This document shows positions 1 to 50,798 of a DNA stretch of 64,000 bases, piece after piece. The notes under the pieces are model-generated. The model worked only from the letters and a program-made list of their open reading frames with translations. It made no database searches and was not told the origin of the DNA. Source of the stretch: Escherichia phage SD2; sequence record PQ821640; one strand, given 5' to 3'. Position numbers and translations under genes: made by a program. The stretch's first letter is position 1. Every line of letters starts with the position of its first letter.

Positions 1-835
1 CTTTTAAAGATGCAAACGGAACTATTTCAAGGATCTTTTGTGCAAAACTCAATGCTTCACGATAAGAGTTGAAATATTTACGTACACGGTAACGACCTTC
101 CAATTTAGCAACACTCACGCTTACACCTGCTTCAATGAGTGAAGCATAGATTGGCATTTCACTTTCTGTCCACTCAAAGCTAACTTGTGTTCCTTTACAA
201 CTTTGTGCTCGCAAAGTCACTGTTAACATTTTTCTTTCATCTACTGCACAATTGATGCTGTGCCAGTGTGGATAAGCAAAATGATAATCTTTATCCTCTA
301 AAAGTTTAAAACCATTTTGTCCGAATTGTTCAAAGATGTTGTTGATTCTTTCTTGATTAATACCGCGTGAACTTGCTTCAAATACACAAGTAGGAATGCC
401 ATATTGTAAACTGTATGCCATTTCTTTTTCCATAGCAGCTTCACGGTTTTCAACAATATCCAACACCCATAACTTCTGTGCTTTTTCAGAACGTGTACGT
501 TGCCCCAGTTTAGAAAAACCTTCTTTATCATCGAATTTGTTAGTGATCCCTACTCGGAAGCCTAAATCTTTTCTCCACATTAGGTATACCACCATCTGAT
601 CATCTTTCAGAACATAAGGTGAAGCCCAAATACGATGGTTATGTGTCATATCTAAAGTCTTACCTTTAGCAGTAATAACATTCCTACCTTTTGTACGTGT
701 AGATAAAGTCTTATTTGTTACTTTTCTAAATGTAACTTTACCGTTAGAATAAGACTCTACCTTATCACCTATTTGCAGGTCTTTCATTGTAACCTGACCA
801 TTTTCGGTATTAAGTACCGTGTTTTCTGACACACA
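1..835 (-). mobile_element. putative intein (Hint domain, partial) inserted in helicase motif III
   Basis: Insert starts CVSENTVLNTENGQVTMKDLQIGDKV (block A-like, Cys1); TxxH block-B-like KGKTLDMTHNHRIW about 64 aa later; remainder of helicase motif III not seen before window edge. Confidence 0.5.
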
Positions 836-1597
836 TTGGAATTCATCACCAACTACCACAATTTGTTTTGCAGATTTAGCATTTCGCAGAATAGACAAGA
901 ATGCAGGGTTAACATCCTGGAATTCATCCCCAAAAATAATGTCATAACCAAGATCAGCACCAGACAATTCAAACAATTTTACATAGGTGTCGTGCGTCAT
1001 CAAAGTATCTGTGTTAGGGTCAATGCGCTCTCGCCACAATTGTTTTGCATACTTAACTACTTCTGTAATTAGTTTGTGTTCGTTAATACCTTTTCTTTTA
1101 ATATCTGCAAGATGTACACTAGGAAAATGTTTACGGCTGATAAAAGGATCATCCGAAAATTCAAACTTACCTACGGTTTGCTTGATCATTAAACCAATCA
1201 TAGCACGAGTTAAAAGTGTTTTCCCTCGTTTATCAATAAGATTATTAATCTTAAATTTCTTTGCTATCTCACTACCTGTACCTGCAACGTTAACATACTG
1301 TCCTTCTGGTCGGGACAGTTTTGCACGTAAACGATGATCCAGGAATTGATAGCAAATGGAATGCAATGTACGGCATTCTACATTTGGTGGCATCTTACGC
1401 CGTGCTTCTTCTGCCATGCTTTTATTGAAAGCTAAGTAAAGAATGCGATCTTCTGTACTGTTAGCCAGCAAATAAAGTGTTGACGTTTTTCCTGATCCAG
1501 ATTTAGCTTGGATAGTTAAAAACCGATGATCTGGAAAAGCCTCCTTAATAGCTGTTTGCTCTTCTGTTGGAGTAAAACTCAACTCTTTCTTAGCCAT
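1..1597 (-). CDS. UvrD/PcrA-like SF1 helicase, N-terminal part, interrupted by an intein; ORF runs off the window start
   Basis: Hand translation from ATG at 1597 stays open to position 1. Walker A AKSGSGKTST, motif Ia LAFNKSMAEEAR, motif II FGDEFQDVN, motif III VVVGDEFQ followed by Cys255 starting a Hint-like insert. Not in ORF track because no stop in window. Confidence 0.75.
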   Translation of the reverse strand, partial: MAKKELSFTPTEEQTAIKEAFPDHRFLTIQAKSGSGKTSTLYLLANSTEDRILYLAFNKSMAEEARRKMPPNVECRTLHSICYQFLDHRLRAKLSRPEGQYVNVAGTGSEIAKKFKINNLIDKRGKTLLTRAMIGLMIKQTVGKFEFSDDPFISRKHFPSVHLADIKRKGINEHKLITEVVKYAKQLWRERIDPNTDTLMTHDTYVKLFELSGADLGYDIIFGDEFQDVNPAFLSILRNAKSAKQIVVVGDEFQCVSENTVLNTENGQVTMKDLQIGDKVESYSNGKVTFRKVTNKTLSTRTKGRNVITAKGKTLDMTHNHRIWASPYVLKDDQMVVYLMWRKDLGFRVGITNKFDDKEGFSKLGQRTRSEKAQKLWVLDIVENREAAMEKEMAYSLQYGIPTCVFEASSRGINQERINNIFEQFGQNGFKLLEDKDYHFAYPHWHSINCAVDERKMLTVTLRAQSCKGTQVSFEWTESEMPIYASLIEAGVSVSVAKLEGRYRVRKYFNSYREALSFAQKILEIVPFASLK

Positions 1598-5052: not shown

Positions 5053-5319
5053 CTAATTACTGTTAGATCTGTACTCTGTCTTCCATTCACAATGGTAAAC
5101 TTCAACAGGTTCTAACTTCCAGTGTTCAGGAACTAGTTCAGGACAATATCTACAAAAGAGAAATAGATAGATAACTAAGACAGGTATTAAATAGTAAAAT
5201 GGTATACGATCATAACCATACTTACGAGATAACATGTAGACATATAGATAGGGTATAACAATTAATCCTATAACTATAAGTAAGAAGAGAAGTATAAACC
5301 TTAGTGTAGTAACATCCAT
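5053..5319 (-). CDS. hypothetical membrane protein
   Basis: 88 aa with long hydrophobic stretch; AGGAGA SD. Confidence 0.6.
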   Translation of the reverse strand: MDVTTLRFILLFLLIVIGLIVIPYLYVYMLSRKYGYDRIPFYYLIPVLVIYLFLFCRYCPELVPEHWKLEPVEVYHCEWKTEYRSNSN

Positions 5320-5397
5320 AGTATTCTCCTATACAGTAATATACTCTGTTCCTGCCCCTCCATGAGTGACAGGAACAATATCTATAGAGAATACTAA

Positions 5398-5458
5398 CTC
5401 GCTTCGCTCGTCACCTTTCAGGTTTAGGGTAGCATGTTTTTCTGAAAAAGTCAATACT
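5398..5458 (+). repeat. about 60-bp element, first copy (see 30747..30805)
   Basis: Same orientation on the plus strand although flanking genes are on the minus strand. Confidence 0.6.
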
Positions 5459-5483
5459 CTCCACAAAACTTTACAAAATACTT

Positions 5484-5756
5484 TTACATAGGTACAACAG
5501 AGTCTGTTTTGAAGTCGTACATATGATTTACACCTGTGATTTTTGACATAGAGATTGCACGTTTAGCACCTGCAATTACCTGGTCTGTCTTCTTAATCTC
5601 TTCACGGAACTTACGTACAGTTAGAGAGAAGAAACGATGATCCATCCATTGACGATTCACACGATCACGCTTGAAGTGACGGAAATCTTCAATCTGTTTA
5701 TTGCGCAATCGGCGCAGTACATGCAATAATTTATAGTAAGGGTGTTTATTTTTCAT
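5484..5756 (-). CDS. hypothetical basic protein
   Basis: 90-aa ORF; GGAGAA SD. Confidence 0.6.
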   Translation of the reverse strand: MKNKHPYYKLLHVLRRLRNKQIEDFRHFKRDRVNRQWMDHRFFSLTVRKFREEIKKTDQVIAGAKRAISMSKITGVNHMYDFKTDSVVPM

Positions 5757-10360: not shown

Positions 10361-10385
10361 AAACCCGCTTCGGCGGGTTTTCTTG
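10361..10385 (+). terminator. rho-independent terminator
   Basis: CCCGCTTCGGCGGG hairpin followed by TTTTCTT. Confidence 0.75.
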
Positions 10386-10418
10386 CATTAATGCCAGATT
10401 TAATAAGAGGAGTAGTAG

Positions 10419-12041: not shown

Positions 12042-12174
12042 TAAATATTATTTTGTACTCTGTTAATAAATTATTTAATTTGTTTGTTGGATTATGATAT
12101 CTGGTTTTTAAAAGGCATACTATCTCTTAACTACTACTTATAACAGAACAGTAAAATCATTTTTATAAAAAGGA

Positions 12175-12382
12175 CAAAATTATTTAAAGTTTTTACAGAT
12201 TTTTGGATACAAATTTTGAAAATGAAAAGTTCAAGTTTGGTCAAAATTATTTAAAGTTTTTGTATGTATTTCTATCCAGATTTTGAAAATGAAAACTTCA
12301 ATTTTTTAAAAATTCCCCAGTTTATTTAAAGTTTTTTTACCTTTTTCCGTAGAAAAATCAAAAATGAAAAGTTCAATTTCGT
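12175..12382. repeat. three tandem direct repeats of about 68 bp
   Basis: Each unit begins TTATTTAAAGTTTTT and ends TTTTGAAAATGAAAAGTTCAA; AT-rich, non-coding. Confidence 0.7.
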
Positions 12383-12400: not shown

Positions 12401-12515
12401 ATGATAATCATTCTCATTTGTAAATGAGAATCATTATCATTTAATTATGTAAATGATAAGCATTCTCACTAAGAGAATGAGAATCATTAGCAAATGAGAA
12501 TTTTTCTCATTTGCA
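12401..12515. promoter_or_regulatory. cluster of five or more Fur-box-like dyad motifs
   Basis: ATGATAATCATTCTCATT, AATGAGAATCATTATCATT, ATGATAAGCATTCTCA, GAGAATGAGAATCATTAGC, AATGAGAATTTTTCTCATT; compare E. coli Fur box GATAATGATAATCATTATC. Confidence 0.45.
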
Positions 12516-13509: not shown

Positions 13510-13569
13510 TTGACACTGAAAAATAATTTGGTAATATATACTCCATAAGGCGGGAAATGGTTTCCCGCC
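13510..13569 (+). promoter_or_regulatory. promoter (TTGACA-16-TAATAT) plus hairpin GGCGGGAAA-TGG-TTTCCCGCC
   Basis: Perfect 9-bp stem at 13549-13569, read directly. Confidence 0.65.
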
Positions 13570-13591
13570 AAAACAAAGAAAGGGTAACACA

Positions 13592-13954
13592 ATGAGCAAG
13601 CAAATCAATACTATCATGTTAAACCTGGTATCTTTCCGCGATGACGTGAAAAACCTTTCGCGTGATGCAGTGGATGCACGGATCGAAAGCTATCGCACAC
13701 AGATCGCAACGTTACCGCTGAAACGTGATCAACATGCCGCTAATATGATGCTTGATGCTATGATTAAAAAGATGATTCAATGTGATCTTACCCTGGCTTA
13801 TGAATATGCTGGCGATCTCTTTGTAACATATAGCAAGCCCGTTCCAGGTATGAGCACCACGGAAGAATTGCATGCCTTAAATCTGCGACAAGATGCATGG
13901 GATAACATGCGCCGTGTTATGGTATGGGTAGAAAGCGGTAAAATTTACGAATAA
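13592..13954 (+). CDS. hypothetical early protein
   Basis: 120 aa; AAGGG SD. Confidence 0.7.
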   Translation: MSKQINTIMLNLVSFRDDVKNLSRDAVDARIESYRTQIATLPLKRDQHAANMMLDAMIKKMIQCDLTLAYEYAGDLFVTYSKPVPGMSTTEELHALNLRQDAWDNMRRVMVWVESGKIYE

Positions 13955-13960
13955 AAACGG

Positions 13961-14014
13961 TTGACATTGCACTAAAACCTGATAAGCTATCTTAAAGCGG
14001 GAATTGTTCCCGCT
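13961..14014 (+). promoter_or_regulatory. promoter (TTGACA) plus hairpin AGCGGGAA-TTG-TTCCCGCT
   Basis: Read directly; -10 weak. Confidence 0.5.
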
Positions 14015-14032
14015 TACATAGGATAAAACTTT

Positions 14033-14179
14033 ATGAAACAATATGTAATGAGTATTCATACCAAAAACGGCGCTACTGTTACGACTCCGGCACGGTTTGC
14101 ACTTGTAAACCGTTGCAAGAGACTAAAACGAGAGTTAAAAAATAACCGTGCAACGGGCTTTAAACGCTGGGGAGGATAA
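14033..14179 (+). CDS. small basic protein (48 aa)
   Basis: Hand translation MKQYVMSIHTKNGATVTTPARFALVNRCKRLKRELKNNRATGFKRWGG. Confidence 0.5.
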   Translation: MKQYVMSIHTKNGATVTTPARFALVNRCKRLKRELKNNRATGFKRWGG

Positions 14180-14181
14180 TC

Positions 14182-14442
14182 TTGTTTTTTCTAAAAGTTT
14201 TTGATAATGTGATCGCTTTTGAACATGCTACAACGTTCGACCTGGCGAGATACGCTATCAGGTTTAAAGATAATGTTTATCCCCGTGCTGGCGGCGGTTA
14301 CACTATTTTTAATCATCGCAACGCGCAACTGACTGATGTAACTAATCCAGATCCTGGAGTGTATCGCATAGGCTGGCTACCGTCAAAAGACGCGGCAAGC
14401 ATGTTTAAGTTATGTAAACTACTAACAGAAGAGGCGAACTAA
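14182..14442 (+). CDS. hypothetical protein, TTG start
   Basis: GGGAGG 6 nt upstream of TTG; no in-frame ATG near the start. Confidence 0.45.
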   Translation: MFFLKVFDNVIAFEHATTFDLARYAIRFKDNVYPRAGGGYTIFNHRNAQLTDVTNPDPGVYRIGWLPSKDAASMFKLCKLLTEEAN

Positions 14443-14443
14443 C

Positions 14444-14998
14444 ATGGGGCGTGAATATGTGATCCAGTCCTGGGTAAAGCATGACGCAAATGATCCGCGC
14501 ATAATACCAGATGACATGATCGATCACATGGTGGGGTATAGCGGGGAGCAGATAGGAAATCGAGCGGCAAAGAGCAACGGCAACACCAGAACGAGATCCG
14601 TTCGCCCTGGATGGCTGGCAAATGGTAACGCTGACATTGCAAGCGCCGCAGATCCAAGCGATGACGCTAAAAATAATCCCTTGTATAACATTGATCCGGC
14701 TTTTAAGGTGTTGGAAGAGTATCCCGCTAAATTAGCCGCACTAGATAAAGCATACGAAGAAAAACGGGTGGCATGGACTGTATACAACACCGCTAAAATG
14801 GTGCTAGATGCAAAATTGATTAAAGCCCAGGAGAAGATCAATAAACTTGTTACCATAGCGCAAGAGGAAGACCAGGACGACCAGGAGGAAGAGGAAGAAA
14901 TCATGCCTATCCTGGAAGAGGAAGAGATCCAGCCATACATGCCGACGGAAGAGGAAAAAAGACAAGCCTTAAAAAATTATAAAAATTGTATTGTGTAA
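14444..14998 (+). CDS. hypothetical protein with acidic C-terminal tail
   Basis: 184 aa ending in an EDQDDQEEEEE-rich tail. Confidence 0.7.
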   Translation: MGREYVIQSWVKHDANDPRIIPDDMIDHMVGYSGEQIGNRAAKSNGNTRTRSVRPGWLANGNADIASAADPSDDAKNNPLYNIDPAFKVLEEYPAKLAALDKAYEEKRVAWTVYNTAKMVLDAKLIKAQEKINKLVTIAQEEDQDDQEEEEEIMPILEEEEIQPYMPTEEEKRQALKNYKNCIV

Positions 14999-15001
14999 GG
15001 C

Positions 15002-15057
15002 TTGACATATGCAAACAAGCCCCGTAATATGTACCACATAGAGCGGGGCAACGCCCC
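15002..15057 (+). promoter_or_regulatory. promoter (TTGACA-17-TAATAT) plus hairpin GGGGC-AAC-GCCCC, no ORF directly downstream
   Basis: Followed by a second promoter rather than an RBS. Confidence 0.55.
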
Positions 15058-15079
15058 ATAAGGTGAAATAAAAAATCAC

Positions 15080-15108
15080 TTGACACCTGAAATCAGTAAG
15101 CTATAATG
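15080..15108 (+). promoter_or_regulatory. sigma70 consensus promoter (TTGACA-17-TATAAT)
   Basis: Perfect -35 and -10 hexamers. Confidence 0.65.
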
Positions 15109-15144
15109 CTTATATAAATTAAAGCGTTACTAAGGAATAAAATC

Positions 15145-15510
15145 ATGGCTAAAAATATTAATGTTTCTGCTTATGCTACCCTGGCTAATACTGCTAAAAT
15201 TGAACTATCCAGCATTGAAGCGGTACATATTAGCGCCCGTCGCTGGTTTCAAAAGTCTTATGGTAATACTTATTTCTCTTTGATGGTTGACGTTGAGATC
15301 GGCGGTAAACTGATTGAAGTCGTTAACGTTCCGTTTCATTATGGTTATGGTGATCATTTTGATACCGTTGCCCTGGAAGAGTTTAGCAAGGTTATCAACC
15401 TGGAAGGTAAAGAGTTTTCAAATTATGCTTATCTTTCCCGTTTTTGCCGTGATAATGGGATCGCTGTATACAGTCATGCAAGCGATGTTAAACGTAAAAA
15501 AGATTTATAA
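15145..15510 (+). CDS. hypothetical early protein
   Basis: 121 aa. Confidence 0.7.
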   Translation: MAKNINVSAYATLANTAKIELSSIEAVHISARRWFQKSYGNTYFSLMVDVEIGGKLIEVVNVPFHYGYGDHFDTVALEEFSKVINLEGKEFSNYAYLSRFCRDNGIAVYSHASDVKRKKDL

Positions 15511-15516
15511 AAAGCA

Positions 15517-15576
15517 TTGACAGCACGAATAAAAAGAGTAAAATGTTTCATATCAGGACGGGGGAACGGTTTCCCC
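15517..15576 (+). promoter_or_regulatory. promoter (TTGACA-16-TAAAAT) plus hairpin GGGGGAA-CGG-TTTCCCC
   Basis: Read directly. Confidence 0.55.
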
Positions 15577-15599
15577 TCCTAACAAAGAGAGAAATAAAA

Positions 15600-15782
15600 A
15601 TGGCTAAATGCACTATTTGTAAGAAAGAAATAGTATTAGTTCCAAGCGCCCGTGAACGTGCCGCTAAGTTCGGTGGCAAACCGTCAGACTATACGAAAAT
15701 GTTTACTACCCATGCAGCTTGTCAAGTAGCAAAACGTTCACAAGAAAGCGTAGAATTAATGCGTAAACTTTCCAAAAAATAA
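15600..15782 (+). CDS. small Cys-containing protein (60 aa), possible zinc ribbon
   Basis: Track ORF started inside the promoter; ATG at 15600 follows GAGAGA; CTICKK...HAAC. Confidence 0.6.
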   Translation: MAKCTICKKEIVLVPSARERAAKFGGKPSDYTKMFTTHAACQVAKRSQESVELMRKLSKK

Positions 15783-15785
15783 GTA

Positions 15786-15844
15786 TTGACAAAGTATTTT
15801 ATTACTATATAATGGTTTACATCGAGAGCGGGAATAGTTCCCGC
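15786..15844 (+). promoter_or_regulatory. promoter (TTGACA-16-TATAAT) plus hairpin GCGGGAA-TAG-TTCCCGC
   Basis: Read directly. Confidence 0.65.
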
Positions 15845-15868
15845 CTCACTGAAAAAGAGATTAACATC

Positions 15869-16108
15869 ATGGCTAAATCTAAAATGTACAACGGTCACAA
15901 AAATAAAACTCATTGGAATGTAAGCCTTTGGATTAATAACGATCCAGGTTTTTATAATATGGCAAAAGAATTTATAGCCGTGAACAACAATAAAGATAAC
16001 GCCGCGCGTGAAATGATGTCATTACTTAACGAAATGGGCCAAAATACTACGCCAGATGGCTATAAATTCAGTAAAACCAGTATCCGCGCCGCTATGGTAG
16101 GAATGTAA
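15869..16108 (+). CDS. hypothetical early protein
   Basis: Start trimmed to ATG after the hairpin (MAKSKMYNG...). Confidence 0.65.
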   Translation: MAKSKMYNGHKNKTHWNVSLWINNDPGFYNMAKEFIAVNNNKDNAAREMMSLLNEMGQNTTPDGYKFSKTSIRAAMVGM

Positions 16109-16117
16109 TAAAAGCAG

Positions 16118-16177
16118 TTGACAACGTTTTTTAATCTGGTATAGTTTATCACATAGGGCGGGAAATGGTTTCCCGCC
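16118..16177 (+). promoter_or_regulatory. promoter (TTGACA-16-TATAGT) plus hairpin GGCGGGAAA-TGG-TTTCCCGCC
   Basis: Read directly. Confidence 0.65.
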
Positions 16178-16199
16178 AAATGAAAGAAAGGTTATCATT

Positions 16200-16427
16200 A
16201 TGGCTATCGTTATTGTTCGCGTATCCGGCACGGTTGGAATCTCCCAGGTAGTAGCAGTTATCACCGAGAAGAAAGGGGATGATCTTCACTCCTCCTTGAA
16301 TAGCTGGGCGGTCGCTAATTTCGGGCAATGGTCGAGCGTTGAGTATATCGAATCCTACCAGGTGCCAACGATTAGCCTAACCGATCTGAATGTTGATCGC
16401 TTATTGTGCCTGGATGGATTAAACTAA
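16200..16427 (+). CDS. hypothetical early protein
   Basis: 75 aa. Confidence 0.65.
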   Translation: MAIVIVRVSGTVGISQVVAVITEKKGDDLHSSLNSWAVANFGQWSSVEYIESYQVPTISLTDLNVDRLLCLDGLN

Positions 16428-16435
16428 AAATAATC

Positions 16436-16491
16436 TTGACAAGATAACTAAAATCAGTAAAATGTAATGCATAGGGCGGCAATAGTGCCGC
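16436..16491 (+). promoter_or_regulatory. promoter (TTGACA-16-TAAAAT) plus hairpin GCGGC-AATAGT-GCCGC
   Basis: Read directly. Confidence 0.65.
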
Positions 16492-16514
16492 TCATAGTAA
16501 GAGAGATTATCAAA

Positions 16515-16730
16515 ATGGCTAATATCCGCACACTGTTAAAAAATGCAAGTCAAGTTTTATTTTCAGATGACGAGTATTTCAACAAAGACATTACAGGCGT
16601 GAAAAATTTAAAAGACGTGAAGGATGTTATCGGTATCCGTGGATCTTTACGTAAAGGTGACATATACGGTAACAAGGTGCAATATAAACTATCAAAAGAT
16701 TATGATTTTACTTTGACAATTATTTCATAA
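16515..16730 (+). CDS. hypothetical early protein
   Basis: Start trimmed to ATG at 16515 (MANIRTLL...). Confidence 0.65.
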   Translation: MANIRTLLKNASQVLFSDDEYFNKDITGVKNLKDVKDVIGIRGSLRKGDIYGNKVQYKLSKDYDFTLTIIS

Positions 16731-16737
16731 AACTACT

Positions 16738-16797
16738 TGCAAACCTGGTAAAATAAAGTAAACTATATTCATTAAGGCGGTGGAATAGCCCACCGCC
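16738..16797 (+). promoter_or_regulatory. promoter-like region plus hairpin GGCGGTGG-AATAGC-CCACCGCC
   Basis: 8-bp perfect stem; promoter hexamers less clear (TTGCAA, TAAACT). Confidence 0.45.
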
Positions 16798-16820
16798 TAA
16801 CAAAGAGAAGAGGAAACATC

Positions 16821-16991
16821 ATGATCACTTTCGCTACCCGTGAAGCCGCTCGCAACGTTGCACGTAAAGTTAACGCCGCCAACCTGGGCGCTACGCTTAA
16901 AGCCCCGGTGAAAGATGAATCAGGAAAATGGATCTTTCCTGGTCTGCGTCACGCTGATAAGCTGGGGACATTAACGTTAAAAAATAAATAA
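16821..16991 (+). CDS. small hypothetical protein (56 aa)
   Basis: Hand translation MITFATREAARNVARKVNAANLG...; GAGGAAA SD. Confidence 0.55.
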   Translation: MITFATREAARNVARKVNAANLGATLKAPVKDESGKWIFPGLRHADKLGTLTLKNK

Positions 16992-16998
16992 TATCCGC

Positions 16999-17027
16999 TT
17001 GACAGTAGCATCATTTATAAGTAAAGT
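16999..17027 (+). promoter_or_regulatory. sigma70-like promoter (TTGACA-17-TAAAGT)
   Basis: Read directly; no hairpin of the usual type. Confidence 0.45.
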
Positions 17028-17121
17028 AACAACAACGGCGGGAAAATTATTGGTTATATATTGCAAGCATGATCATAACTTTGGCAAAATATCATAACGT
17101 AGCGTAATCGAGAGGAAAAAC

Positions 17122-17259
17122 ATGAACGCATCACAGCAGATCGAAAAATTCAACCGCAGCAAGGCGCGTAAAAATTGGAACGAAGAGATCACCAAGAAAG
17201 GCGATAAGCGGAACAAAACAAAAAGAGATCGCAGCACAAAAAGACACTGGAACGAATAA
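17122..17259 (+). CDS. small basic protein (45 aa)
   Basis: MNASQQIEKFNRSKARKNWNEEITKKGDKRNKTKRDRSTKRHWNE; GAGAGGAAA SD; terminator immediately downstream. Confidence 0.5.
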   Translation: MNASQQIEKFNRSKARKNWNEEITKKGDKRNKTKRDRSTKRHWNE

Positions 17260-17262
17260 CAA

Positions 17263-17287
17263 AAAGGGCGCAATAAGCGCCCTTTTA
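17263..17287 (+). terminator. rho-independent terminator
   Basis: GGGCGC-AATAA-GCGCCC then TTTT. Confidence 0.75.
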
Positions 17288-17377
17288 GCTTATATAGAGG
17301 CTTGTTACCCATAGGCAATGGTAACGCCAGGGCAAGCCTATAAATCAACGTTAGACGGCTTTACAGGAGCTTTAAAA

Positions 17378-17560
17378 ATGAGATTAGAAGAAATAAGCAA
17401 GGCACTAGCCCAGGGGCAAAGGTTATGCGCCCGATATCGTGATCAATATGGCTTTATAACTAGCGGCGTGATCCTGGGGATTGAAGGCAATAAAATTTTT
17501 ATTGACACGTTGAAAAACGTTGTATATAGTGACAATATAATCTCAATAAAACATATATGA
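17378..17560 (+). CDS. hypothetical protein (60 aa)
   Basis: Start at ATG after CAGGAG SD; track ORF begins earlier at 17318. Confidence 0.5.
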   Translation: MRLEEISKALAQGQRLCARYRDQYGFITSGVILGIEGNKIFIDTLKNVVYSDNIISIKHI

Positions 17561-17568
17561 GGCAAGAA

Positions 17569-17970
17569 ATGAAAAAATTATTGATCGCTGGTTTAATCTC
17601 TTTTGGCATGGTTGGAACATCTAGCGCGGCGATATCCTCCACAGTAGCAGAATTAAGCGCCGTTGATGCAATGGAAAACGTCATGATCATTAATAACGCG
17701 ATCCCCGATGAAATCATGGAGGATTCACACATGATCGCTTATGGTGCTGTTACACAATTAACGGCAAAAATAGATAAATCTATTGTTAATGGCTTAAATG
17801 AAGATGTACCATGTGAAATTATTACCAGTGTGCTAACGACTCAAAATTTTACGCCGTGGCTAAAAAGTATTCAAAAGGTACACAGCACCGCCGCAGATCG
17901 TAGCAATGAAAAACTAGTGTCAGCACTTGCAACGTATACCCTAGCAAAATGTACCGAGATAAAAGGTTGA
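17569..17970 (+). CDS. hypothetical secreted/periplasmic protein
   Basis: MKKLLIAGLISFGMVGTSSAA signal-peptide-like N-terminus; GAGG SD. Confidence 0.65.
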   Translation: MKKLLIAGLISFGMVGTSSAAISSTVAELSAVDAMENVMIINNAIPDEIMEDSHMIAYGAVTQLTAKIDKSIVNGLNEDVPCEIITSVLTTQNFTPWLKSIQKVHSTAADRSNEKLVSALATYTLAKCTEIKG

Positions 17971-17993
17971 CAATATAGAAAGCACGTTATAAG
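17967..17993 (+). promoter_or_regulatory. sigma70-like promoter (TTGACA-15-TATAAG)
   Basis: Read directly. Confidence 0.45.
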
Positions 17994-18015
17994 ATACACA
18001 ACAAAGGAGAACCAC

Positions 18016-18318
18016 ATGAACGGCATAGCTAAAACGTTTTTTCTTTTTTCTGGTGTAAATGATCCATCAATAAAAGTCGATAGTGTAAAAGAAAACAATA
18101 CTATCACCGCTAAATTGTTTCAAGATGAAACAAATAACGTGCTAATCATTAATCTTAAAGAAATAACGAAAGGTTATTATACTATTGCTTACCATGCGAT
18201 CTATCATGCGGGTACTAGTGAGGAAGTGCAAACAAGCAACAACGAAAGCGCGGCGCTACCTGGTGATCTGGTGCTGGGCGTTATCAGTTTAATTGTCAAT
18301 GATTTTTTTAAGGAGTAA
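18016..18318 (+). CDS. hypothetical protein
   Basis: 100 aa; AAGGAG SD. Confidence 0.65.
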   Translation: MNGIAKTFFLFSGVNDPSIKVDSVKENNTITAKLFQDETNNVLIINLKEITKGYYTIAYHAIYHAGTSEEVQTSNNESAALPGDLVLGVISLIVNDFFKE

Positions 18319-18322
18319 AACC

Positions 18323-18418
18323 ATGCCCTATTTACATTTATTTTTCGGTATCTTATTGACAGGATCTTTTTTCTTCTGTATGCTTGTTTCTATTGTAAAC
18401 CACGTTTTAAGACATTAA
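18323..18418 (+). CDS. tiny hydrophobic peptide (31 aa)
   Basis: MPYLHLFFGILLTGSFFFCMLVSIVNHVLRH; AAGGAG SD. Confidence 0.3.
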   Translation: MPYLHLFFGILLTGSFFFCMLVSIVNHVLRH

Positions 18419-18427
18419 GGAAACAGC

Positions 18428-18547
18428 ATGAAAATTATTCCCGTACAGTATAGCGTAATAAATCCAGCATATGAGGAAGGAAGGAAAACAAGCATGGCTT
18501 TATGTTGTATTACTACTATAGCCATGTTATTATATATTGTGTTTTAA
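18428..18547 (+). CDS. tiny membrane peptide (39 aa)
   Basis: MKIIPVQYSVINPAYEEGRKTSMALCCITTIAMLLYIVF; AAGGAAA SD. Confidence 0.3.
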   Translation: MKIIPVQYSVINPAYEEGRKTSMALCCITTIAMLLYIVF

Positions 18548-18576
18548 TAGGTTTTATAGTTGTACGCTTTAAAGGC

Positions 18577-18604
18577 TTGACAATTTTTTGTTATGCTTTA
18601 AAAT
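18577..18604 (+). promoter_or_regulatory. sigma70-like promoter (TTGACA-16-TAAAAT)
   Basis: Read directly. Confidence 0.45.
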
Positions 18605-18647
18605 ATATCTTGAAAACGGCAAAGGCCGCAAACAAAAGGGTAAAATT

Positions 18648-18971
18648 ATGAAATCTGTGATCGGTGTTTATTTGGATAACTCTGATTTTTTCTATCATCG
18701 TGCGCGTTTCCTTGATGCGATTGAAATGATAGAATCAGGCTTTAAAGAGTATCGCCTTGCACATGATGACCTGGAAGCATTACAGGGCAATAGTGTTTTT
18801 ACATTGCAAGCTAAAGCACTATGTAAAAGCCGGATCGACATTGCGAGCAAAAAGATAGAACGCGGCATGTCCTGGTTACGCACCGCAGAAATTAACATGG
18901 GGCAATGGTACGGCGAAAACTTAGAAAATAAACTCACTTTTGTAAATGTAGAAAATCTTAAAGATTATTGA
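18648..18971 (+). CDS. hypothetical protein
   Basis: Start trimmed to ATG at 18648. Confidence 0.6.
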   Translation: MKSVIGVYLDNSDFFYHRARFLDAIEMIESGFKEYRLAHDDLEALQGNSVFTLQAKALCKSRIDIASKKIERGMSWLRTAEINMGQWYGENLENKLTFVNVENLKDY

Positions 18972-19033
18972 TTGACAGCACGCCTGATAAGGAGTATATT
19001 GTATCTCATAGAGCGGGGAAATGGTTTCCCCGC
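18972..19033 (+). promoter_or_regulatory. promoter (TTGACA-17-TATATT) plus hairpin GCGGGGAAA-TGG-TTTCCCCGC
   Basis: Read directly. Confidence 0.65.
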
Positions 19034-19053
19034 CTTAACAGAAGAGATAAGAT

Positions 19054-19338
19054 ATGAAAATCACAAAAGCACTTTTCAACTATGCAGCACGTCGCGGATT
19101 ATGCTTATCCGTTGAAAATTTAGGAAAAGAAGATTTTTTGTGCTTTTGGGAGCTTGAGAATGATAATGAGTGGATCTTCTCTTATTCTATCTGCAAAGAT
19201 CAAAATGGTTGCTTGTTAACCTGGCACGGTAATATCTATTTGCCGGAAGAAATAAAACAAGAATTACCAGGCACGATCATGACTGAGAAACAGCTTAAGG
19301 AAGTGATCAATTTTGTAAGGCAAAACATTAAAAAATAA
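19054..19338 (+). CDS. hypothetical early protein
   Basis: 94 aa. Confidence 0.7.
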   Translation: MKITKALFNYAARRGLCLSVENLGKEDFLCFWELENDNEWIFSYSICKDQNGCLLTWHGNIYLPEEIKQELPGTIMTEKQLKEVINFVRQNIKK

Positions 19339-19339
19339 T

Positions 19340-19400
19340 TTGACAGTAGGCAAACAACGTAGTAAAGTTTACCACATAGGGCGGGAAATGGTTTCCCGCC
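19340..19400 (+). promoter_or_regulatory. promoter (TTGACA-17-TAAAGT) plus hairpin GGCGGGAAA-TGG-TTTCCCGCC
   Basis: Read directly. Confidence 0.6.
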
Positions 19401-19418
19401 AGAATAGAGAGAACTAAA

Positions 19419-19523
19419 ATGATTATTCTTACCATGATGTGCGCGGCGGTTATTATTCCTTTGATAACGCTTATTGTTTCTGAGATCGATGATCTTCTCT
19501 TTGAAAGAAGTTTAAAAAAGTAA
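19419..19523 (+). CDS. tiny membrane peptide (34 aa)
   Basis: MIILTMMCAAVIIPLITLIVSEIDDLLFERSLKK. Confidence 0.4.
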   Translation: MIILTMMCAAVIIPLITLIVSEIDDLLFERSLKK

Positions 19524-19585
19524 TTGACAACGGCTAATAAGCTGATAATATGTATCACATAGGGCGGGGCAATAAGGCAACGCCC
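19524..19585 (+). promoter_or_regulatory. promoter (TTGACA-17-TAATAT) plus weaker hairpin GGGCG...CGCCC
   Basis: 5-bp stem with long loop. Confidence 0.5.
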
Positions 19586-19603
19586 ACTAATGAGGGTAGC
19601 ATC

Positions 19604-19708
19604 ATGTTAGAGAAAATTTTCACGGTTGTAATAGTGGGCCTGGCGTTATCGGTTGGAGTGATTGCAACTATGGCTAACATGATCCTATCTTCCCACGGTA
19701 TCGGCTAA
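19604..19708 (+). CDS. tiny membrane peptide (34 aa)
   Basis: MLEKIFTVVIVGLALSVGVIATMANMILSSHGIG. Confidence 0.4.
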   Translation: MLEKIFTVVIVGLALSVGVIATMANMILSSHGIG

Positions 19709-19722
19709 AAGAGAAACACAAC

Positions 19723-20109
19723 ATGAAAACAGAAATCATTATTGAAATCATCAACGGTTATAAAGAAGCCTTTATTTTTGCTGAATCAGCAAGGGATCAT
19801 GAAGGTAATTTTATTGATAACTTAGACGATTATGATTTTTCAGATCAAGCCCATCAACGGATCATTAATGACGTAGCGGCTTATTGTGATGCCAATGATG
19901 CTGCTATCTCTGAGGCAATGAGCGACGGCGCAACAGCAAACCAGATCGGGAATGATTTACATTTTACCCGTAACGGTCACGGCGTAGGTTTTTGGGATCG
20001 CCCTGAAATATACACTACTAACACCGCCAACCGCCTAACAAATGCAGCTAGATTAATGCCATCGGTGCATGCTTACATTGGTGAAGATAATTTGATTTAT
20101 ATTGAATAA
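19723..20109 (+). CDS. hypothetical protein
   Basis: 128 aa. Confidence 0.7.
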   Translation: MKTEIIIEIINGYKEAFIFAESARDHEGNFIDNLDDYDFSDQAHQRIINDVAAYCDANDAAISEAMSDGATANQIGNDLHFTRNGHGVGFWDRPEIYTTNTANRLTNAARLMPSVHAYIGEDNLIYIE

Positions 20110-20115
20110 AAAGTG

Positions 20116-20174
20116 TTGACACCGATCCCCAATATGGTATTATTTACCACGTAGGCGGGAAATGGTTTCCCGCC
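20116..20174 (+). promoter_or_regulatory. promoter (TTGACA-16-TATTAT) plus hairpin GGCGGGAAA-TGG-TTTCCCGCC
   Basis: Read directly. Confidence 0.65.
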
Positions 20175-20198
20175 AGGTAATCAAAAAAGGTAAACATT

Positions 20199-20588
20199 AT
20201 GCGCAACCTGATTTCTGTTTCTAACGTTGAAAAATTTCAATCCTTGCAGGGTATCATTAACAACGTAGCGCCTTTTTTAGTCAATGGCTTGATTGCAAAG
20301 ATGAAAAATAAACATCATGCGGCATGGTCTGCTTATTGCTTTGATAATGATGAAAAAGCGGCTGAAATGATGTTAAATATGCTTTTGGATAGTGTAGAAT
20401 CATCTTTACCGGAAAACATCGCAGAAGAGATCACCTATCGTTATAATATGGCGATCACTTACCAGGAGGTTGCGCAATTCAACATGATGGATGATGACGA
20501 ACAACAGGATCAAGAAATGTTCTGGGAGTATGCAGATCGTCAATCGGCTTTTGATGAAAAGTTAGCGATGTATTATAACGAATATTAA
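20199..20588 (+). CDS. hypothetical acidic protein
   Basis: 129 aa. Confidence 0.7.
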   Translation: MRNLISVSNVEKFQSLQGIINNVAPFLVNGLIAKMKNKHHAAWSAYCFDNDEKAAEMMLNMLLDSVESSLPENIAEEITYRYNMAITYQEVAQFNMMDDDEQQDQEMFWEYADRQSAFDEKLAMYYNEY

Positions 20589-20602
20589 TACACGGTAAAA
20601 GA

Positions 20603-20630
20603 AAGGGGCGCACTAAGCGCCCTTTTTTGT
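20603..20630 (+). terminator. rho-independent terminator
   Basis: GGGCGC-ACTAA-GCGCCC then TTTTTT. Confidence 0.75.
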
Positions 20631-20973
20631 ATTCTTTTTTCACGATGGAAACAACACGTAAAGAATAGGCGTAAAGGTGGCGTAAAACAGCCTAAAACCG
20701 ATTATAACCGCTTAAACAAGGTAGGGATGATTAATCACCTTACCAGGATGAAAAAGCCGTTATAAAGCTATCTAGAGCGTTTAAAGCACATAGGAAATAA
20801 TTTGCTTTTTATCTTGCCTTTTATTCTGCTTTTGATTATTATTATGGAACGGGCGGCACCTGGGAGCAGGGGAAGATAATCACCGGACGATCTTATTATA
20901 TATTGATAGCTTCCACCTATCAAACAACAAAACATTAAAGAAATAAACTATCAAATCTTTACAATCTCACCTA

Positions 20974-21033
20974 TTGACACCGGATCGCCCTTATACTAAG
21001 ATGTATCACGTAGGCGGGAAGTGGTTTCCCGCT
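20974..21033 (+). promoter_or_regulatory. promoter (TTGACA-17-TAAGAT) plus hairpin GCGGGAAG-TGG-TTTCCCGC
   Basis: Read directly. Confidence 0.55.
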
Positions 21034-21785: not shown

Positions 21786-21988
21786 CCTAAATAAAGATGA
21801 TAGCTTTTACCTATCAAAAACGTTCACCGAAAAAAGTGAATAGATCGCGGTATCGAGCTAATCAAGGAGCAGATGAACAACCATACCATGAAGATCATAA
21901 GGCGCTTACAACGTGTTTTAGACCGCTTATTTTTAATTTCTTCATGTAACTATCTGGCAAAAACAGCCTTTTTCTTGTCTTTCCTCTT

Positions 21989-22065
21989 AAATGATAATCA
22001 TTCTTATTTATAGCTGATTATTTATGCAATAAACTGAATAATGTAATAATGATAATCATTCTTAA
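21989..22065. promoter_or_regulatory. two direct copies of AATGATAATCATTCTTA (Fur-box-like)
   Basis: At about 21989 and 22047 inside an AT-rich non-coding region. Confidence 0.45.
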
Positions 22066-22890
22066 CTTAAGACCATCTAACCTATAAAATAATAAGTTAT
22101 CTAACTAAATTAAAACTAATTATCTCACCTTTATTTATAACTTACTGTTACTATCTCATTGATAACCTTATATTAAACAACAATAACTAATATAAATTAT
22201 TACTAAGCTAAATATAATCTATCTAACCTTTAAAACTATAATTATAATCTATCGAATTGTTGCACAAAGTAACTATTAAATTGTTAGTAACATTACTAAA
22301 TAATTAATATCCTATCTATTTATGATCTAATCTTTACCTTCCTATTTATTACCTAAATAATCATTTCATACCGTAATCATTTCATACAATAATTATAACA
22401 AGAAATATAATTAACAAGCGTATCATTAGCAGCCTATGCCGGACACATAGGCGGCTAATAATAACGCAACTACACACCCCACATAATAACCATCACCGAT
22501 AGTTATTATTTGTGCTTATGTAGCTTGCAACAACTGCAAGCGCAACAATATACATGGTATATTGTATTCCCTTACATTGTTGCGGTGCGTTATTATTAGC
22601 TAATGTTTGGAACATTGGCTATAATATAAGCTATCCAATAATAAACATAGTGAATAATAACCCTGATGATCATAATGCGCCACCTTCCAGGGGGCGCTAT
22701 GTGAACACAAAGAAATCTTTCTTGTCAAGAAAAATATTACCATTATTGCGCAAAATTATTTACATCTGAATAGATGGTTTTTCATACTATTGCCCCATAT
22801 AGCCTATCATTTGTTGAGCCTACTTTCTTAAAAGCGCAATAAATTAGAATTATCTTGATTTTTAGGGCGTTTTATAGTATAGAAAATATG

Positions 22891-22915
22891 CAAATGATAA
22901 TCATTATCAGTTATC
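22891..22915. promoter_or_regulatory. Fur-box-like site AATGATAATCATTATC
   Basis: 16 consecutive matches to the E. coli Fur consensus as I recall it. Confidence 0.5.
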
Positions 22916-23070
22916 TTCCACGGGTGGCACTATTTCACGCAGGATCATTTCATTTGGCAAGGTGTATATAGATGTTTAGACTTGCCAAGCCATTGATTTG
23001 CTTAGAATTTATCTGTTTTGTTGTGAGTAATGCCTTTCTTGCTCAGAAAATAATCAAAAGTCTTATAAGT

Positions 23071-23114
23071 CATTGAATGATAATGCAAATGATAATAATT
23101 CTCATTGATATTTG
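23071..23114. promoter_or_regulatory. degenerate tandem Fur-box-like motifs
   Basis: GAATGATAATGCAAATGATAATAATTCTCATTGATA. Confidence 0.4.
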
Positions 23115-23512
23115 AGGGGGACGGTCAGCAGAAATCGGGGGGCGCTGAAAATCGCGTTAAGCACCTCTCGCAAGCGAGCAGTATTTTGCGGCAAGTTATT
23201 GATATTATTGACTTTACGCTTATGAAAAGGGGGTGTGTCGAAATAAATCGGGTATACCGGAAAATTTTTGTGGCATAGATATTTATTTGTCTATATTATG
23301 TACAAAGGGGTGTGTTAAAAATATTAGGTATATATAGAATAATTGATAGGGAAATCCTATACTAAATCCTTCATTATTGCAGCGGGTGAAAGACAGAATC
23401 GAAGATGCAAATAATGCTTGCATTGGATAGAAATGTCTGTATAGTGGTTTGCATACCGCGCACGACGCGTTTCCATTTTCAATAAAATGTTAGCATTATG
23501 GGGAGGTAGAAA

Positions 23513-30664: not shown

Positions 30665-30746
30665 GAGTAGTAAGTAAGATATAAAGAGTGTATAGTTAGT
30701 AACATTACATATACTCTTTCCATGTATAACATGGAATATTCTCTAC

Positions 30747-30805
30747 CTCGCTATCGCTCGGTATATAAGATTAGGGTAGCATGTTTTTTACGAAAAGTAA
30801 AACTG
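30747..30805 (+). repeat. about 60-bp element, second copy of the one at 5398..5458
   Basis: CTCGCTATCGCTCG...TTAGGGTAGCATGTTTTTT...GAAAAGTAAAACTG versus CTCGCTTCGCTCG...TTAGGGTAGCATGTTTTTC...GAAAAAGTCAATACT. Confidence 0.6.
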
Positions 30806-30859
30806 TTTGTACCGATTGATAGCAGGTTTTTAATAGATTTTATCTATGAGGAGTAGAAA

Positions 30860-34344: not shown

Positions 34345-34370
34345 AAACCCGCTTCGGCGGGTTTTCTTGT
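34345..34370 (+). terminator. rho-independent terminator (same module as 10361)
   Basis: CCCGCTTCGGCGGG then TTTTCTT. Confidence 0.75.
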
Positions 34371-34424
34371 ATATACGCTCTTTATCTGTTATAAACACTT
34401 TTACCATAAACAATAGGAGGTATT

Positions 34425-35090: not shown

Positions 35091-35114
35091 ATAAGAAAAG
35101 GGGCTTTCGCCCCC
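35091..35114 (-). terminator. rho-independent terminator
   Basis: GGGGC-TTTC-GCCCC with T-run on the minus strand. Confidence 0.6.
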
Positions 35115-47333: not shown

Positions 47334-48160
47334 TCCTTGTTTAAAAGTATAGTTAAAGTTCTTACAATACCGCTATCAACACTTCGCGGATTTAAAGTAG
47401 GATCTGTTTTTAAATAAGATGTTGCTGGTCTGACTGCTTTGGAATTATAGGTTGAAGCAGATACAGGATTAACTGTAACAGATAAATCTATAACAAGAAA
47501 TATCTTTCGTGCAAAATCATACCAAGAAATATAATCTGCACCTGCATAGTGTACAATTTTACTATTTACACCATCTTTTACAAGTTTAAAAATTGTTTCT
47601 GCAAGATCAGGTGCATAAGTAGGACATGACAAATGATCACATACTACATTAAATTCTTTTTGACCACCGTTGTAGCGTTCCAACATAGTTTTCAAAAAGT
47701 TATGTCCAAATTCACTATAAACAGAAGCTGTTCTGATAATAAGTGCTGTAGGACAAACTGTTTGTACTAAAGTTTCACCTAATTGTTTACTGTAACCGTA
47801 GGTGTTCAAGGGGTTTGTTTTACTATCTTCTGTGCCAGCAACATGCCCATCAAAAACATAGTCTGTTGAAATATGTACAAACTGTATCAGTAAATCATTA
47901 CATGCTTTGGCAATGTTTGTTGCACCGTATGCATTAACATTTATACAGGTGTTAACATCTTCTTCAGCTTTATCTACTGCCGTGTAAGCCGCACAATTCA
48001 CAACAACATCAGGCACATGCTGTACAAGACTATTCATAACATCTTTAAAGTTGGTAATGTCTACATCACTTGCTTCAATCAAAATAACATCTTCGGGCGC
48101 AACTTTTGCCAAAGACTGTCCTAATTGACCTTTTGAACCAAAGATTAAAAATTTTGTCAA
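47330..48160 (-). CDS. rmlD: dTDP-4-dehydrorhamnose reductase
   Basis: N-terminal Rossmann FGSKGQLG; last gene of an rmlB-A-C-D array; overlaps rmlC by 4 nt. Confidence 0.8.
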   Translation of the reverse strand: MTKFLIFGSKGQLGQSLAKVAPEDVILIEASDVDITNFKDVMNSLVQHVPDVVVNCAAYTAVDKAEEDVNTCINVNAYGATNIAKACNDLLIQFVHISTDYVFDGHVAGTEDSKTNPLNTYGYSKQLGETLVQTVCPTALIIRTASVYSEFGHNFLKTMLERYNGGQKEFNVVCDHLSCPTYAPDLAETIFKLVKDGVNSKIVHYAGADYISWYDFARKIFLVIDLSVTVNPVSASTYNSKAVRPATSYLKTDPTLNPRSVDSGIVRTLTILLNKE

Positions 48161-48711
48161 AATATGATCTCCTTTAGTGTTTTGGCTTGCTGATCTTTTT
48201 GTGACAAGATAGGTTTAAAATTAATATCATTAAAGATTAAATCAAAACCCCAATCAATATTGATATCTGGATCATTCCACGCAAGACTACACTCTGAAGT
48301 CGGATCGTAATATTCTGTACATTTATATTCAAAATCAGCAATGTCACTAATCACAACAAAGCCATGAGCGAAACCAGGAGGAATCCAAAATTGTGTTTTA
48401 TTCTTTTCAGATAAGAGAACACCTACCCATTCTCCAAATGTTGGACTACCAACCCTAATATCTACAGCAACATCATAAACTTCACCACGAACACAACGTA
48501 CTAACTTCCCTTGTGGGTTTTTCTTTTGAAAATGAAGCCCACGTAGAACTCCTCGAATAGAACGTGAGTGGTTATCCTGGACAAAGTTTTGTTTACCTAT
48601 GTATTGATCATATAAAGCCTGATTAAAACTTTCTAAGAAAAAGCCACGTTCATCTCCGTAAACGTCAGGTTGAATGATCAACAAATCTTCGATTTTTGTT
48701 GCTTGAATCAT
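48157..48711 (-). CDS. rmlC: dTDP-4-dehydrorhamnose 3,5-epimerase
   Basis: Cupin-type RmlC sequence; operon context. Confidence 0.85.
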   Translation of the reverse strand: MIQATKIEDLLIIQPDVYGDERGFFLESFNQALYDQYIGKQNFVQDNHSRSIRGVLRGLHFQKKNPQGKLVRCVRGEVYDVAVDIRVGSPTFGEWVGVLLSEKNKTQFWIPPGFAHGFVVISDIADFEYKCTEYYDPTSECSLAWNDPDINIDWGFDLIFNDINFKPILSQKDQQAKTLKEIIF

Positions 48712-48723
48712 TTAATTCCCCCT

Positions 48724-49593
48724 TTATTTTAATTTAAGTAAATACTTACCGTAGTCTGTTTTACTTAAAACCTCTCCAGAATTTTTTACAGAATCTAAAG
48801 TAATCCATTCATTTTTAAAAGCAATCTCTTCCAGGCATGCAACCTTCATACCTTGTTGCTTTTCTATTGCATGAACAAATTGAGATGCCTCCATAAGACT
48901 TTCATGTGTTCCTGTATCCAGCCAAGTGAAACCTCTTCCTAGTTTACAGACACGTAAAGTTTTTTCTTTCCAGTACATCTCATTTATATCTGTAATCTCT
49001 AACTCCCCTCTAGCAGAAGGTTTAACGCTCTTAGCTTTCTGTATAACAGAATTATCGTAAAAGTACAAGCCTGTGATTGCGTAGTTGCTTTTTGGTGCTT
49101 TTGGTTTTTCTTCAATACTCACCACTGTACCTTCAGAATCAAACTCAACAACACCAAATCTTTCAGGATCATTTACGTGATACCCAAAAATATTAGCTCC
49201 ACCATTCTTTTCAATATGTTCTTTAGCAGAATCTAAAATGCTACCAAAACTCTGACCAAAGAATAAATTATCACCTAGCACAAGTGCTACAGAATCTTCA
49301 CCAATAAAGTTCTCACCAATAATAAAGGCTTCTGCTAAACCTTTTGGGCTGTTCTGTACTGCATACTGTAGGGAAATACCAAAAGAAGAACCATCACCTA
49401 AAAGATTTACAAAATTAATTTGATCTTCTGGTGTTGTAATTATTAGTATTTCCCTAATTCCAGAAAGCATTAGGACAGAGAGTGGATAATAAATCATAGG
49501 CTTATCGTAAATTGGTAATAGTTGTTTACTAAACCCTTTAGTAACTGGGTAAAGTCTTGTTCCGCTACCACCTGCTAAGATAATACCTTTCAT
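48724..49593 (-). CDS. rmlA: glucose-1-phosphate thymidylyltransferase
   Basis: [18 protein letters not shown] signature N-terminus. Confidence 0.9.
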
Positions 49594-49601
49594 ACTCCTC
49601 C

Positions 49602-50785: not shown

Positions 50786-50798
50786 TCTACTATCCTCC

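Follow-up and report, generated by a model that had tools for sequence, protein, structure and literature searches.

What is the role of a short element that a phage genome carries in one orientation both between minus-strand genes and between plus-strand genes? The 64,000-nt stretch of Escherichia phage SD2 DNA analyzed here (record PQ821640, below referred to as the window) contains such an element, which a first-pass annotation had described as a repeat of about 60 bp at 5398-5458 and 30747-30805. Given this arrangement, it had been considered not to be simply a strand-specific promoter, and a small RNA, a recombination or homing site and a regulatory element had been proposed instead. Taken as a whole, the observations are best explained if each copy is a promoter-plus-leader cassette on the minus strand, and we consider this reading, built on sequence comparisons, the probable one. 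The element would then be of a conventional kind, a promoter with a conserved leader hairpin, yet an undescribed one that has some unusual aspects: no description of it was found in the literature on its motif strings, on TACCCT promoters and on phi92 promoters.

The window is 97-99% identical to genomes of Justusliebigvirus (phi92-like E. coli myophages of ~148 kb) and has the same orientation as phi92. The sequence TTAGGGTAGCATGTTTTT occurs in the window exactly twice, at 5424-5441 (copy A) and 30771-30788 (copy B), both times on the plus strand, versus 0.18 matches in a shuffle control with up to three mismatches permitted, so that the two copies and their common orientation were described correctly. 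It is preceded on the left by CTCGCTTCGCTCG at 5398-5410 in copy A (at a distance of 13 nt) and by CTCGCTATCGCTCG at 30747-30760 in copy B (10 nt), and followed on the right by the block GAAAAGT-AA-ACT; thus all three blocks reported earlier, CTCGCT(a/t)CGCTCG, TTAGGGTAGCATGTTTTT and GAAAAGT-AA-ACT, are indeed common to both copies. The size of 60 bp turned out to be an underestimate, as related sequence and structure span approximately 5320-5454 in copy A and 30684-30801 in copy B, including, on the left, an extra hairpin of differing sequence between the common flanks TATACTCT and TCTCT.

The count of two holds within the window, but not for the whole genome. A third, inverted copy (copy C), located in related genomes, is situated ~6.4 kb to the right of the window's end (47937-47967 in phi92, ~140,243 in the genome of 'alia'); in a full related genome it occupies the gap that separates the divergent gp106 and gp107 (prs). 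In phi92, copy A is upstream of gp208, at ~130 kb, and copy B is between gp023 and gp024, ~7.95 kb from the left genome end. With the covariance model of the hairpin described below, each genome yields exactly three copies, and degenerate versions are not detected; in one whole genome the hairpin core is present at the three promoter copies only. The initial proposal had been made dependent on further copies and on conservation in relatives. Both are observed, the conservation being strong: in addition to the third copy in each genome, the search yielded copies in relatives, in chromosomal islands and in other phage contigs.

Being read on the minus strand, all three blocks are parts of a promoter and its leader. 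In particular, GAAAAGT-AA-ACT corresponds to the -35 hexamer with its flank, TTAGGGTAGCATGTTTTT to the end of the spacer, TGn, the -10 hexamer TACCCT and AA, and CTCGCT(a/t)CGCTCG to a hairpin located approximately 15-30 nt past the start of the transcript. By its layout, each copy resembles an extended -10 promoter of the sigma-70 class. In copy A, the predicted -35 hexamer TTGACT (5449-5454, minus strand), assigned by direct reading and by the spacing in the family, is followed after a 17-nt spacer by TGc-TACCCT (5426-5434, hexamer 5426-5431), and the predicted transcription start is G5419, the seventh nucleotide past the hexamer, at a pyrimidine-purine step. In copy B, the predicted -35 hexamer is TTTACT (30796-30801, minus strand), which is the same in all class B homologues; the spacer is again 17 nt, TGc-TACCCT occupies 30773-30781 (hexamer 30773-30778), and the predicted start is A30766, at a T-A step in positions 6-7 after the hexamer. 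The promoter-like site of copy C is TTGACA, 17 nt, TGc-TACCCT. The objection raised against a promoter does not hold, as copy A is sense to the downstream minus-strand genes and copy B antisense to its neighbors, and the latter placement, being retained in distant relatives, is a feature of the element rather than an argument against a promoter. A regulatory element and a small RNA, both suggested initially, are viable.

The promoter assignment is consistent with the wider family. A match to TTGACA in at least four of six positions at a spacing of exactly 17 nt is found in 34 of 38 distinct upstream sequences, and in three more at 18 nt, versus zero to four matches at other offsets in the range of 12-23 nt; the -35 hexamer was not imposed by most collecting searches, the pattern of one scan, which added a minority of loci, having contained TTGACT. 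The pyrimidine-purine step in positions 6-7 after TACCCT, where the start is expected, is present in 18 of 21 distinct sequences. TGC directly precedes TACCCT in all three genomic copies; in the wider family TGn was imposed by the search pattern. TACCCT coincides with TATAAT in three of six positions (T-12, A-11 and T-7 are retained), below the threshold of four of six used by a consensus scanner, which for this reason called none of the copies a promoter. Since TGCTACCCTAA was part of the search patterns, its invariance in the collected family is partly circular. Two sources of support do not depend on the patterns. One is the three paralogues within a single genome, and the other is a Klebsiella phage that was found via its gp208 homologue and shares the -10 hexamer and the core; this unbiased sampling provided one informative additional relative only. 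A scan of viral contigs for the promoter half without the hairpin yielded approximately the estimated chance number of matches, with no common leader, and thus TGCTACCCTAA alone is not diagnostic. A NadR box in the spacer was considered and rejected, with one half-site only resembling TAAACA by eye. From these features, transcription is predicted to start approximately 7 nt past the hexamer. A literature search for infection RNA-seq or start-site mapping in these phages returned none.

The most conserved part of the element is the hairpin following the predicted start. In copy A it is UGAC-CGAGCG-A-AGCGAG-UUA (5394-5414, core 5398-5410, minus strand; model score 37.9 bits), and in copy B, UACC-CGAGCG-AU-AGCGAG-GUA (30743-30764, core 30747-30760, minus strand; 32.8 bits), both assigned by folding and covariation. 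The core CGAGCG-N1-3-AGCGAG is invariant, and starts 7-16 nt past the hexamer, that is, 1-10 nt from the predicted start. Homologues were collected by pattern scans of viral, genome and metagenome collections, which yielded 42 distinct sequences. Two matches in Chloroflexi (L067, L115) represent an unrelated palindromic element, are within the estimated chance number, and were dropped. The core could fold as C-G, G.A, A.G, G-C and C-G pairs closed by a loop, whose variants are GAA, GAUA, GAAA, GUAA, GCA and GUCUA, always with G in the first and A in the last position.

The structural conservation, suggested initially as a check, is clear, as the stem covaries across 24 distinct homologues. The pair adjacent to the core is C-G in 12 of them, A-U in eight and U-A in one, being unpaired in three; two steps further out, 23 of 24 sequences have a pair, with five pair types represented, and the intervening pair is often G.G. 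The covariation score is 0.312, compared to 0.128 +/- 0.027 in shuffles (none of 500 reach the observed value) and to at most 0.153 with slid partners. Moreover, the pairing is strand-asymmetric: in these 24 sequences, 80.4% of cells pair in the promoter sense versus 69.0% on the strand described initially, the outer pair is formed in 23 of 24 sequences versus 12 of 24 on the opposite strand, and the G.U and G.A pairs are workable in the promoter sense only.

These data bear on the possibility that the blocks are double-stranded regulator sites, the candidates being a T-run/A-run dyad in the spacer, the AGCGA repeats and TTTCATG-N5-CATGAAA. The spacer dyad is present in most family members, TTTCATG-N5-CATGAAA has constant arms and spacing with a variable center, as operators do, and putative transcription factors are annotated just to the right of copy B in a related genome. 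Still, the spacing of GAGCG and AGCGAG is variable, by 1-3 nt, which fits a single-stranded loop and would not be tolerated by a rigid operator with two half-sites at a fixed spacing; the flanking bases covary as pairs, which a protein-bound duplex would not need; and the pairing depends on the strand. Taken together, the variable loop length, covariation and strand asymmetry argue for a single-stranded hairpin in the promoter sense and against a double-stranded operator, which we regard as very improbable.

No protein-coding function of the element is apparent, as stop-free stretches over it differ in frame and length between relatives, and hence no ORF is conserved there. The small CDSs annotated across it in public records are probably spurious, including the 44-aa bas62_0168 over copy B in MZ501084; several other records list CDSs under the copy A match. 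In the window, small ORFs overlap copy B (30722-30856, plus strand) and copy A (5329-5466, minus strand, and 5366-5491, plus strand). Comparison of the whole window with Rfam 15 at the gathering threshold gave no match, and around both copies and the island region only chance-level noise was observed at E up to 10, with no match to NAD riboswitches.

One feature is at odds with the promoter reading. A short dyad over the predicted start, such as ACCT-GAA-AGGT in copy A (5413-5423, centered on the predicted start), is found in 14 of 21 distinct sequences, compared to 3.7 +/- 1.6 in shuffles. Its 5' arm begins 1-3 nt after TACCCT and is therefore absent from RNA produced by this promoter, which hints at a single-stranded DNA form or at a start further upstream.

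If the dyad folds in DNA, the element might act as DNA, the promoter opening the duplex or laying a primer RNA, so that the displaced non-template strand folds into stable mini-hairpins of the GCGAAGC type; the copies would then be replication origins or primosome-loading sites. T4 oriF and oriG consist of a middle promoter and a DNA-unwinding element. As with these origins, several promoter-based elements are dispersed over the genome of a large virulent phage, and a very AT-rich stretch is located ~130-200 nt downstream of copy C, in the divergent intergenic region; the G.A/G.U asymmetry fits a non-template DNA strand as well as RNA, and in the islands described below the cassette lies between the integrase and a primase-like replication module and is followed by direct repeats. 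However, copies A and B lack a comparable AT-rich unwinding stretch, and copy A leads directly into a leader and a coding gene. The downstream leader hairpins covary like RNA and are tied to a ribosome-binding site, the GC skew of the window tracks gene direction only, and no initiator-binding repeats are seen at the phage copies. On balance, an origin is unlikely, though not negligibly so.

Alternatively, the dyad could be transcribed from a start further upstream, which its position 1-3 nt after TACCCT would require for it to exist in RNA. The whole block, including UGCUACCCUAA and the dyad, would then be a cis-regulatory motif within a longer RNA, and its likeness to a promoter would be secondary. 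Transcripts of the co-oriented upstream genes would indeed cross copy A, and NAD-salvage genes follow two of the copies in some relatives. Against this, neither a co-oriented gene nor an obvious promoter lies upstream of copies B and C, the Rfam searches reported above produced no family, and the fixed 17-nt spacing of the -35 hexamer and the pyrimidine-purine start step would otherwise be hard to explain. This makes a longer cis-regulatory RNA quite improbable, and the promoter-plus-leader reading is retained below.

The three copies differ in what follows the hairpin. Copy A is sense to a leftward block, starting with gp208 (phi92 name), which encodes an 88-aa membrane-like protein (5053-5319, minus strand). 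For its leader (5424 to 5316, minus strand), the fold has a z-score of -4.26, none of 200 shuffles being as good, and contains a long predicted hairpin (5320-5395, minus strand), within which the AGGAG ribosome-binding site of gp208 is paired (ATG at 5319-5317). Class A relatives have an equivalent long hairpin with compensatory changes, and often a U-rich run between the hairpin and the ribosome-binding site. Downstream of copy A there are approximately ten small genes and then a helicase; at the left end of the window (1-1590, minus strand) an ORF encoding a UvrD-like helicase crosses the boundary and, by eye, seems to contain an intein-like insert.

In the Klebsiella relative L124 (PQ360875, 25896-27910), promoter A precedes genes for NMNAT and PnuC, and the block continues with RIIA, helicases and ribonucleotide reductase up to a primase/helicase. 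No NMNAT or PnuC gene is found in the 5 kb of the window downstream of copy A. Copy C reads toward prs and nadV (phi92 48179-50877), from which it is separated by the AT-rich stretch and by a second promoter-like site. With promoter A ahead of NMNAT and PnuC in the Klebsiella relative, and promoter C ahead of prs and nadV in phi92, co-regulation of NAD-salvage genes by two of the three cassettes is possible.

Antisense transcription from copy B would pass two hairpins before reaching the 3' end of gp023. The second hairpin of this copy, TTCCATG-N5-CATGGAA (30718-30736, from folding), shows one compensatory change, from U-A to C-G, relative to its relatives; on the plus strand it scored as terminator-like for the gp023 transcript. 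The related form TTTCATG-N5-CATGAAA is present in class B relatives and in chromosomal islands; it is operator-like and doubles as a hairpin or terminator. The third hairpin, AAAGAGTGTATA...TATACTCTTT followed by UUUAUAUCUU on the minus strand (30684-30719, folding on both strands), is a possible two-way terminator in these models and would likely form the 3' end of an RNA of ~100 nt, and no clear U-tract terminator is seen for copy B on the minus strand. In seven class B loci of diverged relatives the element lies between homologues of gp024 and gp023 in the same antisense orientation. The flanking proteins in these loci are 31-48% identical and the core is unchanged, so that the non-coding element is far better conserved than the neighboring genes. 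The retention of the antisense arrangement in diverged relatives suggests that the product of copy B is probably a short non-coding RNA, or else a transcript antisense to the left-end gene block.

Several other repeats in the window deserve mention. At least seven sigma-70 promoters of the form TTGACA, 17 nt, TATAGT-like lie in the region 13524-21032, and the same GC-rich hairpin GGGCGGGAAATGGTTTCCCGCC follows each of them within ~10 nt (families D2, D3 and D5-D7); these form a second, separate class of promoters with a 5' hairpin in the early region. Clusters resembling Fur boxes are located at 12401-12513, 21983-22063 and 22886-23119, and also at 277-295 (families D4, D9 and D14); with up to three mismatches, GATAATGATAATCATTATC has six matches in the window compared to 0.03 expected. 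Judging by the offset from copy B, the right-hand cluster is near the expected map position of the genome ends and terminal repeat. These sites may be iron-responsive phage promoters or serve in titration of the host Fur. Directly to the left of the first cluster there are three tandem-like copies of an AT-rich unit of ~70-79 nt (12159-12379, family D1). Finally, near-identical GC hairpins flanked by A/T runs, AAACCCGCTTCGGCGGGTTT and AAAAGGGGCTTTCGCCCC, are found at 10361-10388 and 34345-34372, and at 35096, 46383 and 59470; they are likely reused two-way terminators, and the one at 34345 is situated at a point of converging gene direction.

Outside this phage family, the cassette was found in two other phage contigs (L044 and L052), the former having no match among named phages, and in a family of integrated elements (L040/L114, L065 and L064, the latter on a 505-kb Scandinavium contig). 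These islands encode integrases, endonuclease VII, a DUF5906 primase-like protein, a resolvase and a C5 methylase, and may be phage satellites. In the islands (4735-5650 in L040), the cassette stands at the head of a non-coding region of ~700 nt, which contains covarying hairpins as well as direct repeats of ~55 nt; the island operon's own TTGACA-N17-TATAAT promoter comes after this region. The similarity between copy B and the islands extends 40 nt past the core (score 31 versus a shuffle maximum of 26). Neither copy A nor the island sequence has a match in complete E. coli genomes, and in the DNA sampled no protein is common to the various hosts of the cassette.

Such a distribution, with three dispersed copies in one phage genome and the same cassette in unrelated genetic elements including integrase-bearing islands, might be expected of a small mobile repeat or of a recombination or homing site, as one of the initial proposals had it. 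This proposal gained no support, as synteny between the window and a related genome is unbroken at either copy. The positions are orthologous across genera, the copy number is constant at three, and neither terminal repeats nor target duplications are seen at the phage copies. The stretches examined around them, by ORF lists, annotation and family scans of ten flanking ORFs, revealed no adjacent gene for a homing endonuclease or a recombinase, most of these ORFs having no assignable function. We consider a mobile or recombining repeat extremely improbable.

Among known systems, different parts of the cassette recall different elements. The RfaH ops element, GGCGGTAGCGTG, forms a mini-hairpin in the 5' leader and requires a flipped-out T in the 12-nt GGCGGTAGnnTG, as well as a factor of the RfaH type. 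The element studied here likewise has a GCG-NN-AGC mini-hairpin with a G.A pair in the 5' leader, and the core of copy B coincides with ops in nine of 11 positions, but the T essential to ops is missing from the cores of copies A and C, and no NusG/RfaH homologue was found by phmmer in the phage or the islands. Moreover, because of its covarying lower stem the hairpin, unlike ops, is too long to fit into the transcription bubble. Stabilizing hairpins at the 5' end are known in bacterial and phage mRNAs, for example, in the ompA leader. The hairpin is similarly placed, starting 1-10 nt from the predicted 5' end, and the same phage has another GC-rich hairpin right behind early promoters; however, a pure stabilizer would not need a core of 13-15 nt that is invariant across genera and genetic elements.

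The anatomy is closest to that of lambda pL-nutL or of HK022 PL-putL. As in lambda pL-nutL with boxB, there is a predicted promoter-proximal RNA hairpin with a conserved G...A loop resembling the GNRA type and a variable stem, present in a few copies per genome, just after sigma-70 promoters and before further hairpins. By the standard of boxB, every loop has the form G-N1-3-A and closes a C-G/G-C stem, but it is of variable length (3-5 nt) rather than a fixed pentaloop, and the stem of the phage element has two G.A mismatches. Unlike lambda nut, no boxA-like CGCTCTTA is found between TACCCT and the core in any listed sequence of the family, and the host of the element is a large virulent myophage, not a lambdoid phage. 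No N-like arginine-rich protein was identified among the ten neighboring proteins scanned. The put RNA of HK022 (PMC9378689), comprised of two long stems and a triple helix in ~70 nt, is, like the element, a cis-acting structured RNA located right after an early promoter, with similar paralogous copies in each genome; by comparison with its description, the conserved part here is a hairpin of only ~21 nt.

Sequence analysis shows the promoter-like anatomy of the copies, their number, their conservation and the covariation; the start site, transcription as such and the function are inferred, and for these the following model can be suggested. The host sigma-70 RNA polymerase would recognize TTGACT or TTTACT, the 17-nt spacer, TGc and TACCCT, and start ~7 nt further on, and the small hairpin would fold within approximately the first 35 nt of the new RNA, its core consisting of a C-G pair, two G.A pairs, G-C and C-G pairs and a GNRA-type G-N-A loop, on top of a stem where pairing is retained and sequence varies. 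The three copies could form a small co-regulated set: copy A would head the leftward block from gp208, with the leader hairpin hiding the ribosome-binding site; copy C, outside the window, would be directed to prs and nadV; and copy B would fire antisense between gp024 and gp023 into the hairpin region. Most plausibly, the invariant hairpin would be a handle for a trans-acting factor, such as an antiterminator or a regulator targeting the more distal leader hairpins, and copy B could then be a decoy; or else the hairpin could serve as a 5' stabilizer. Our best guess is that it recruits a factor acting on the leader hairpins or on RNA stability, and that copy B supplies an antisense or decoy RNA. 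Family scans of the ten neighboring ORFs revealed no candidate binding protein, and none of these ORFs has an assignable function.

That integrase-bearing islands contain the cassette too is a hint of regulatory cross-talk between a virulent phage and chromosomal elements. In a bolder version, the hairpin would be the site of a new phage or host factor governing a three-promoter regulon, the RNAs of copy B and of the islands would be decoys or sensors, and the islands would be satellites copying the RNA of a phi92-like helper. We consider this distinctly unlikely; if true, satellite islands would use a copied regulatory RNA to sense or disturb helper gene expression.

Phages related to phi92 and phAPEC8 are widely isolated therapy candidates, and their transcription program is essentially unmapped. 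The three-copy cassette provides a concrete entry to the regulation of these phages, with predicted start sites, a probable small RNA or antisense transcript opposite the left-end genes, and an invariant hairpin that could be used as bait for its binding partner.
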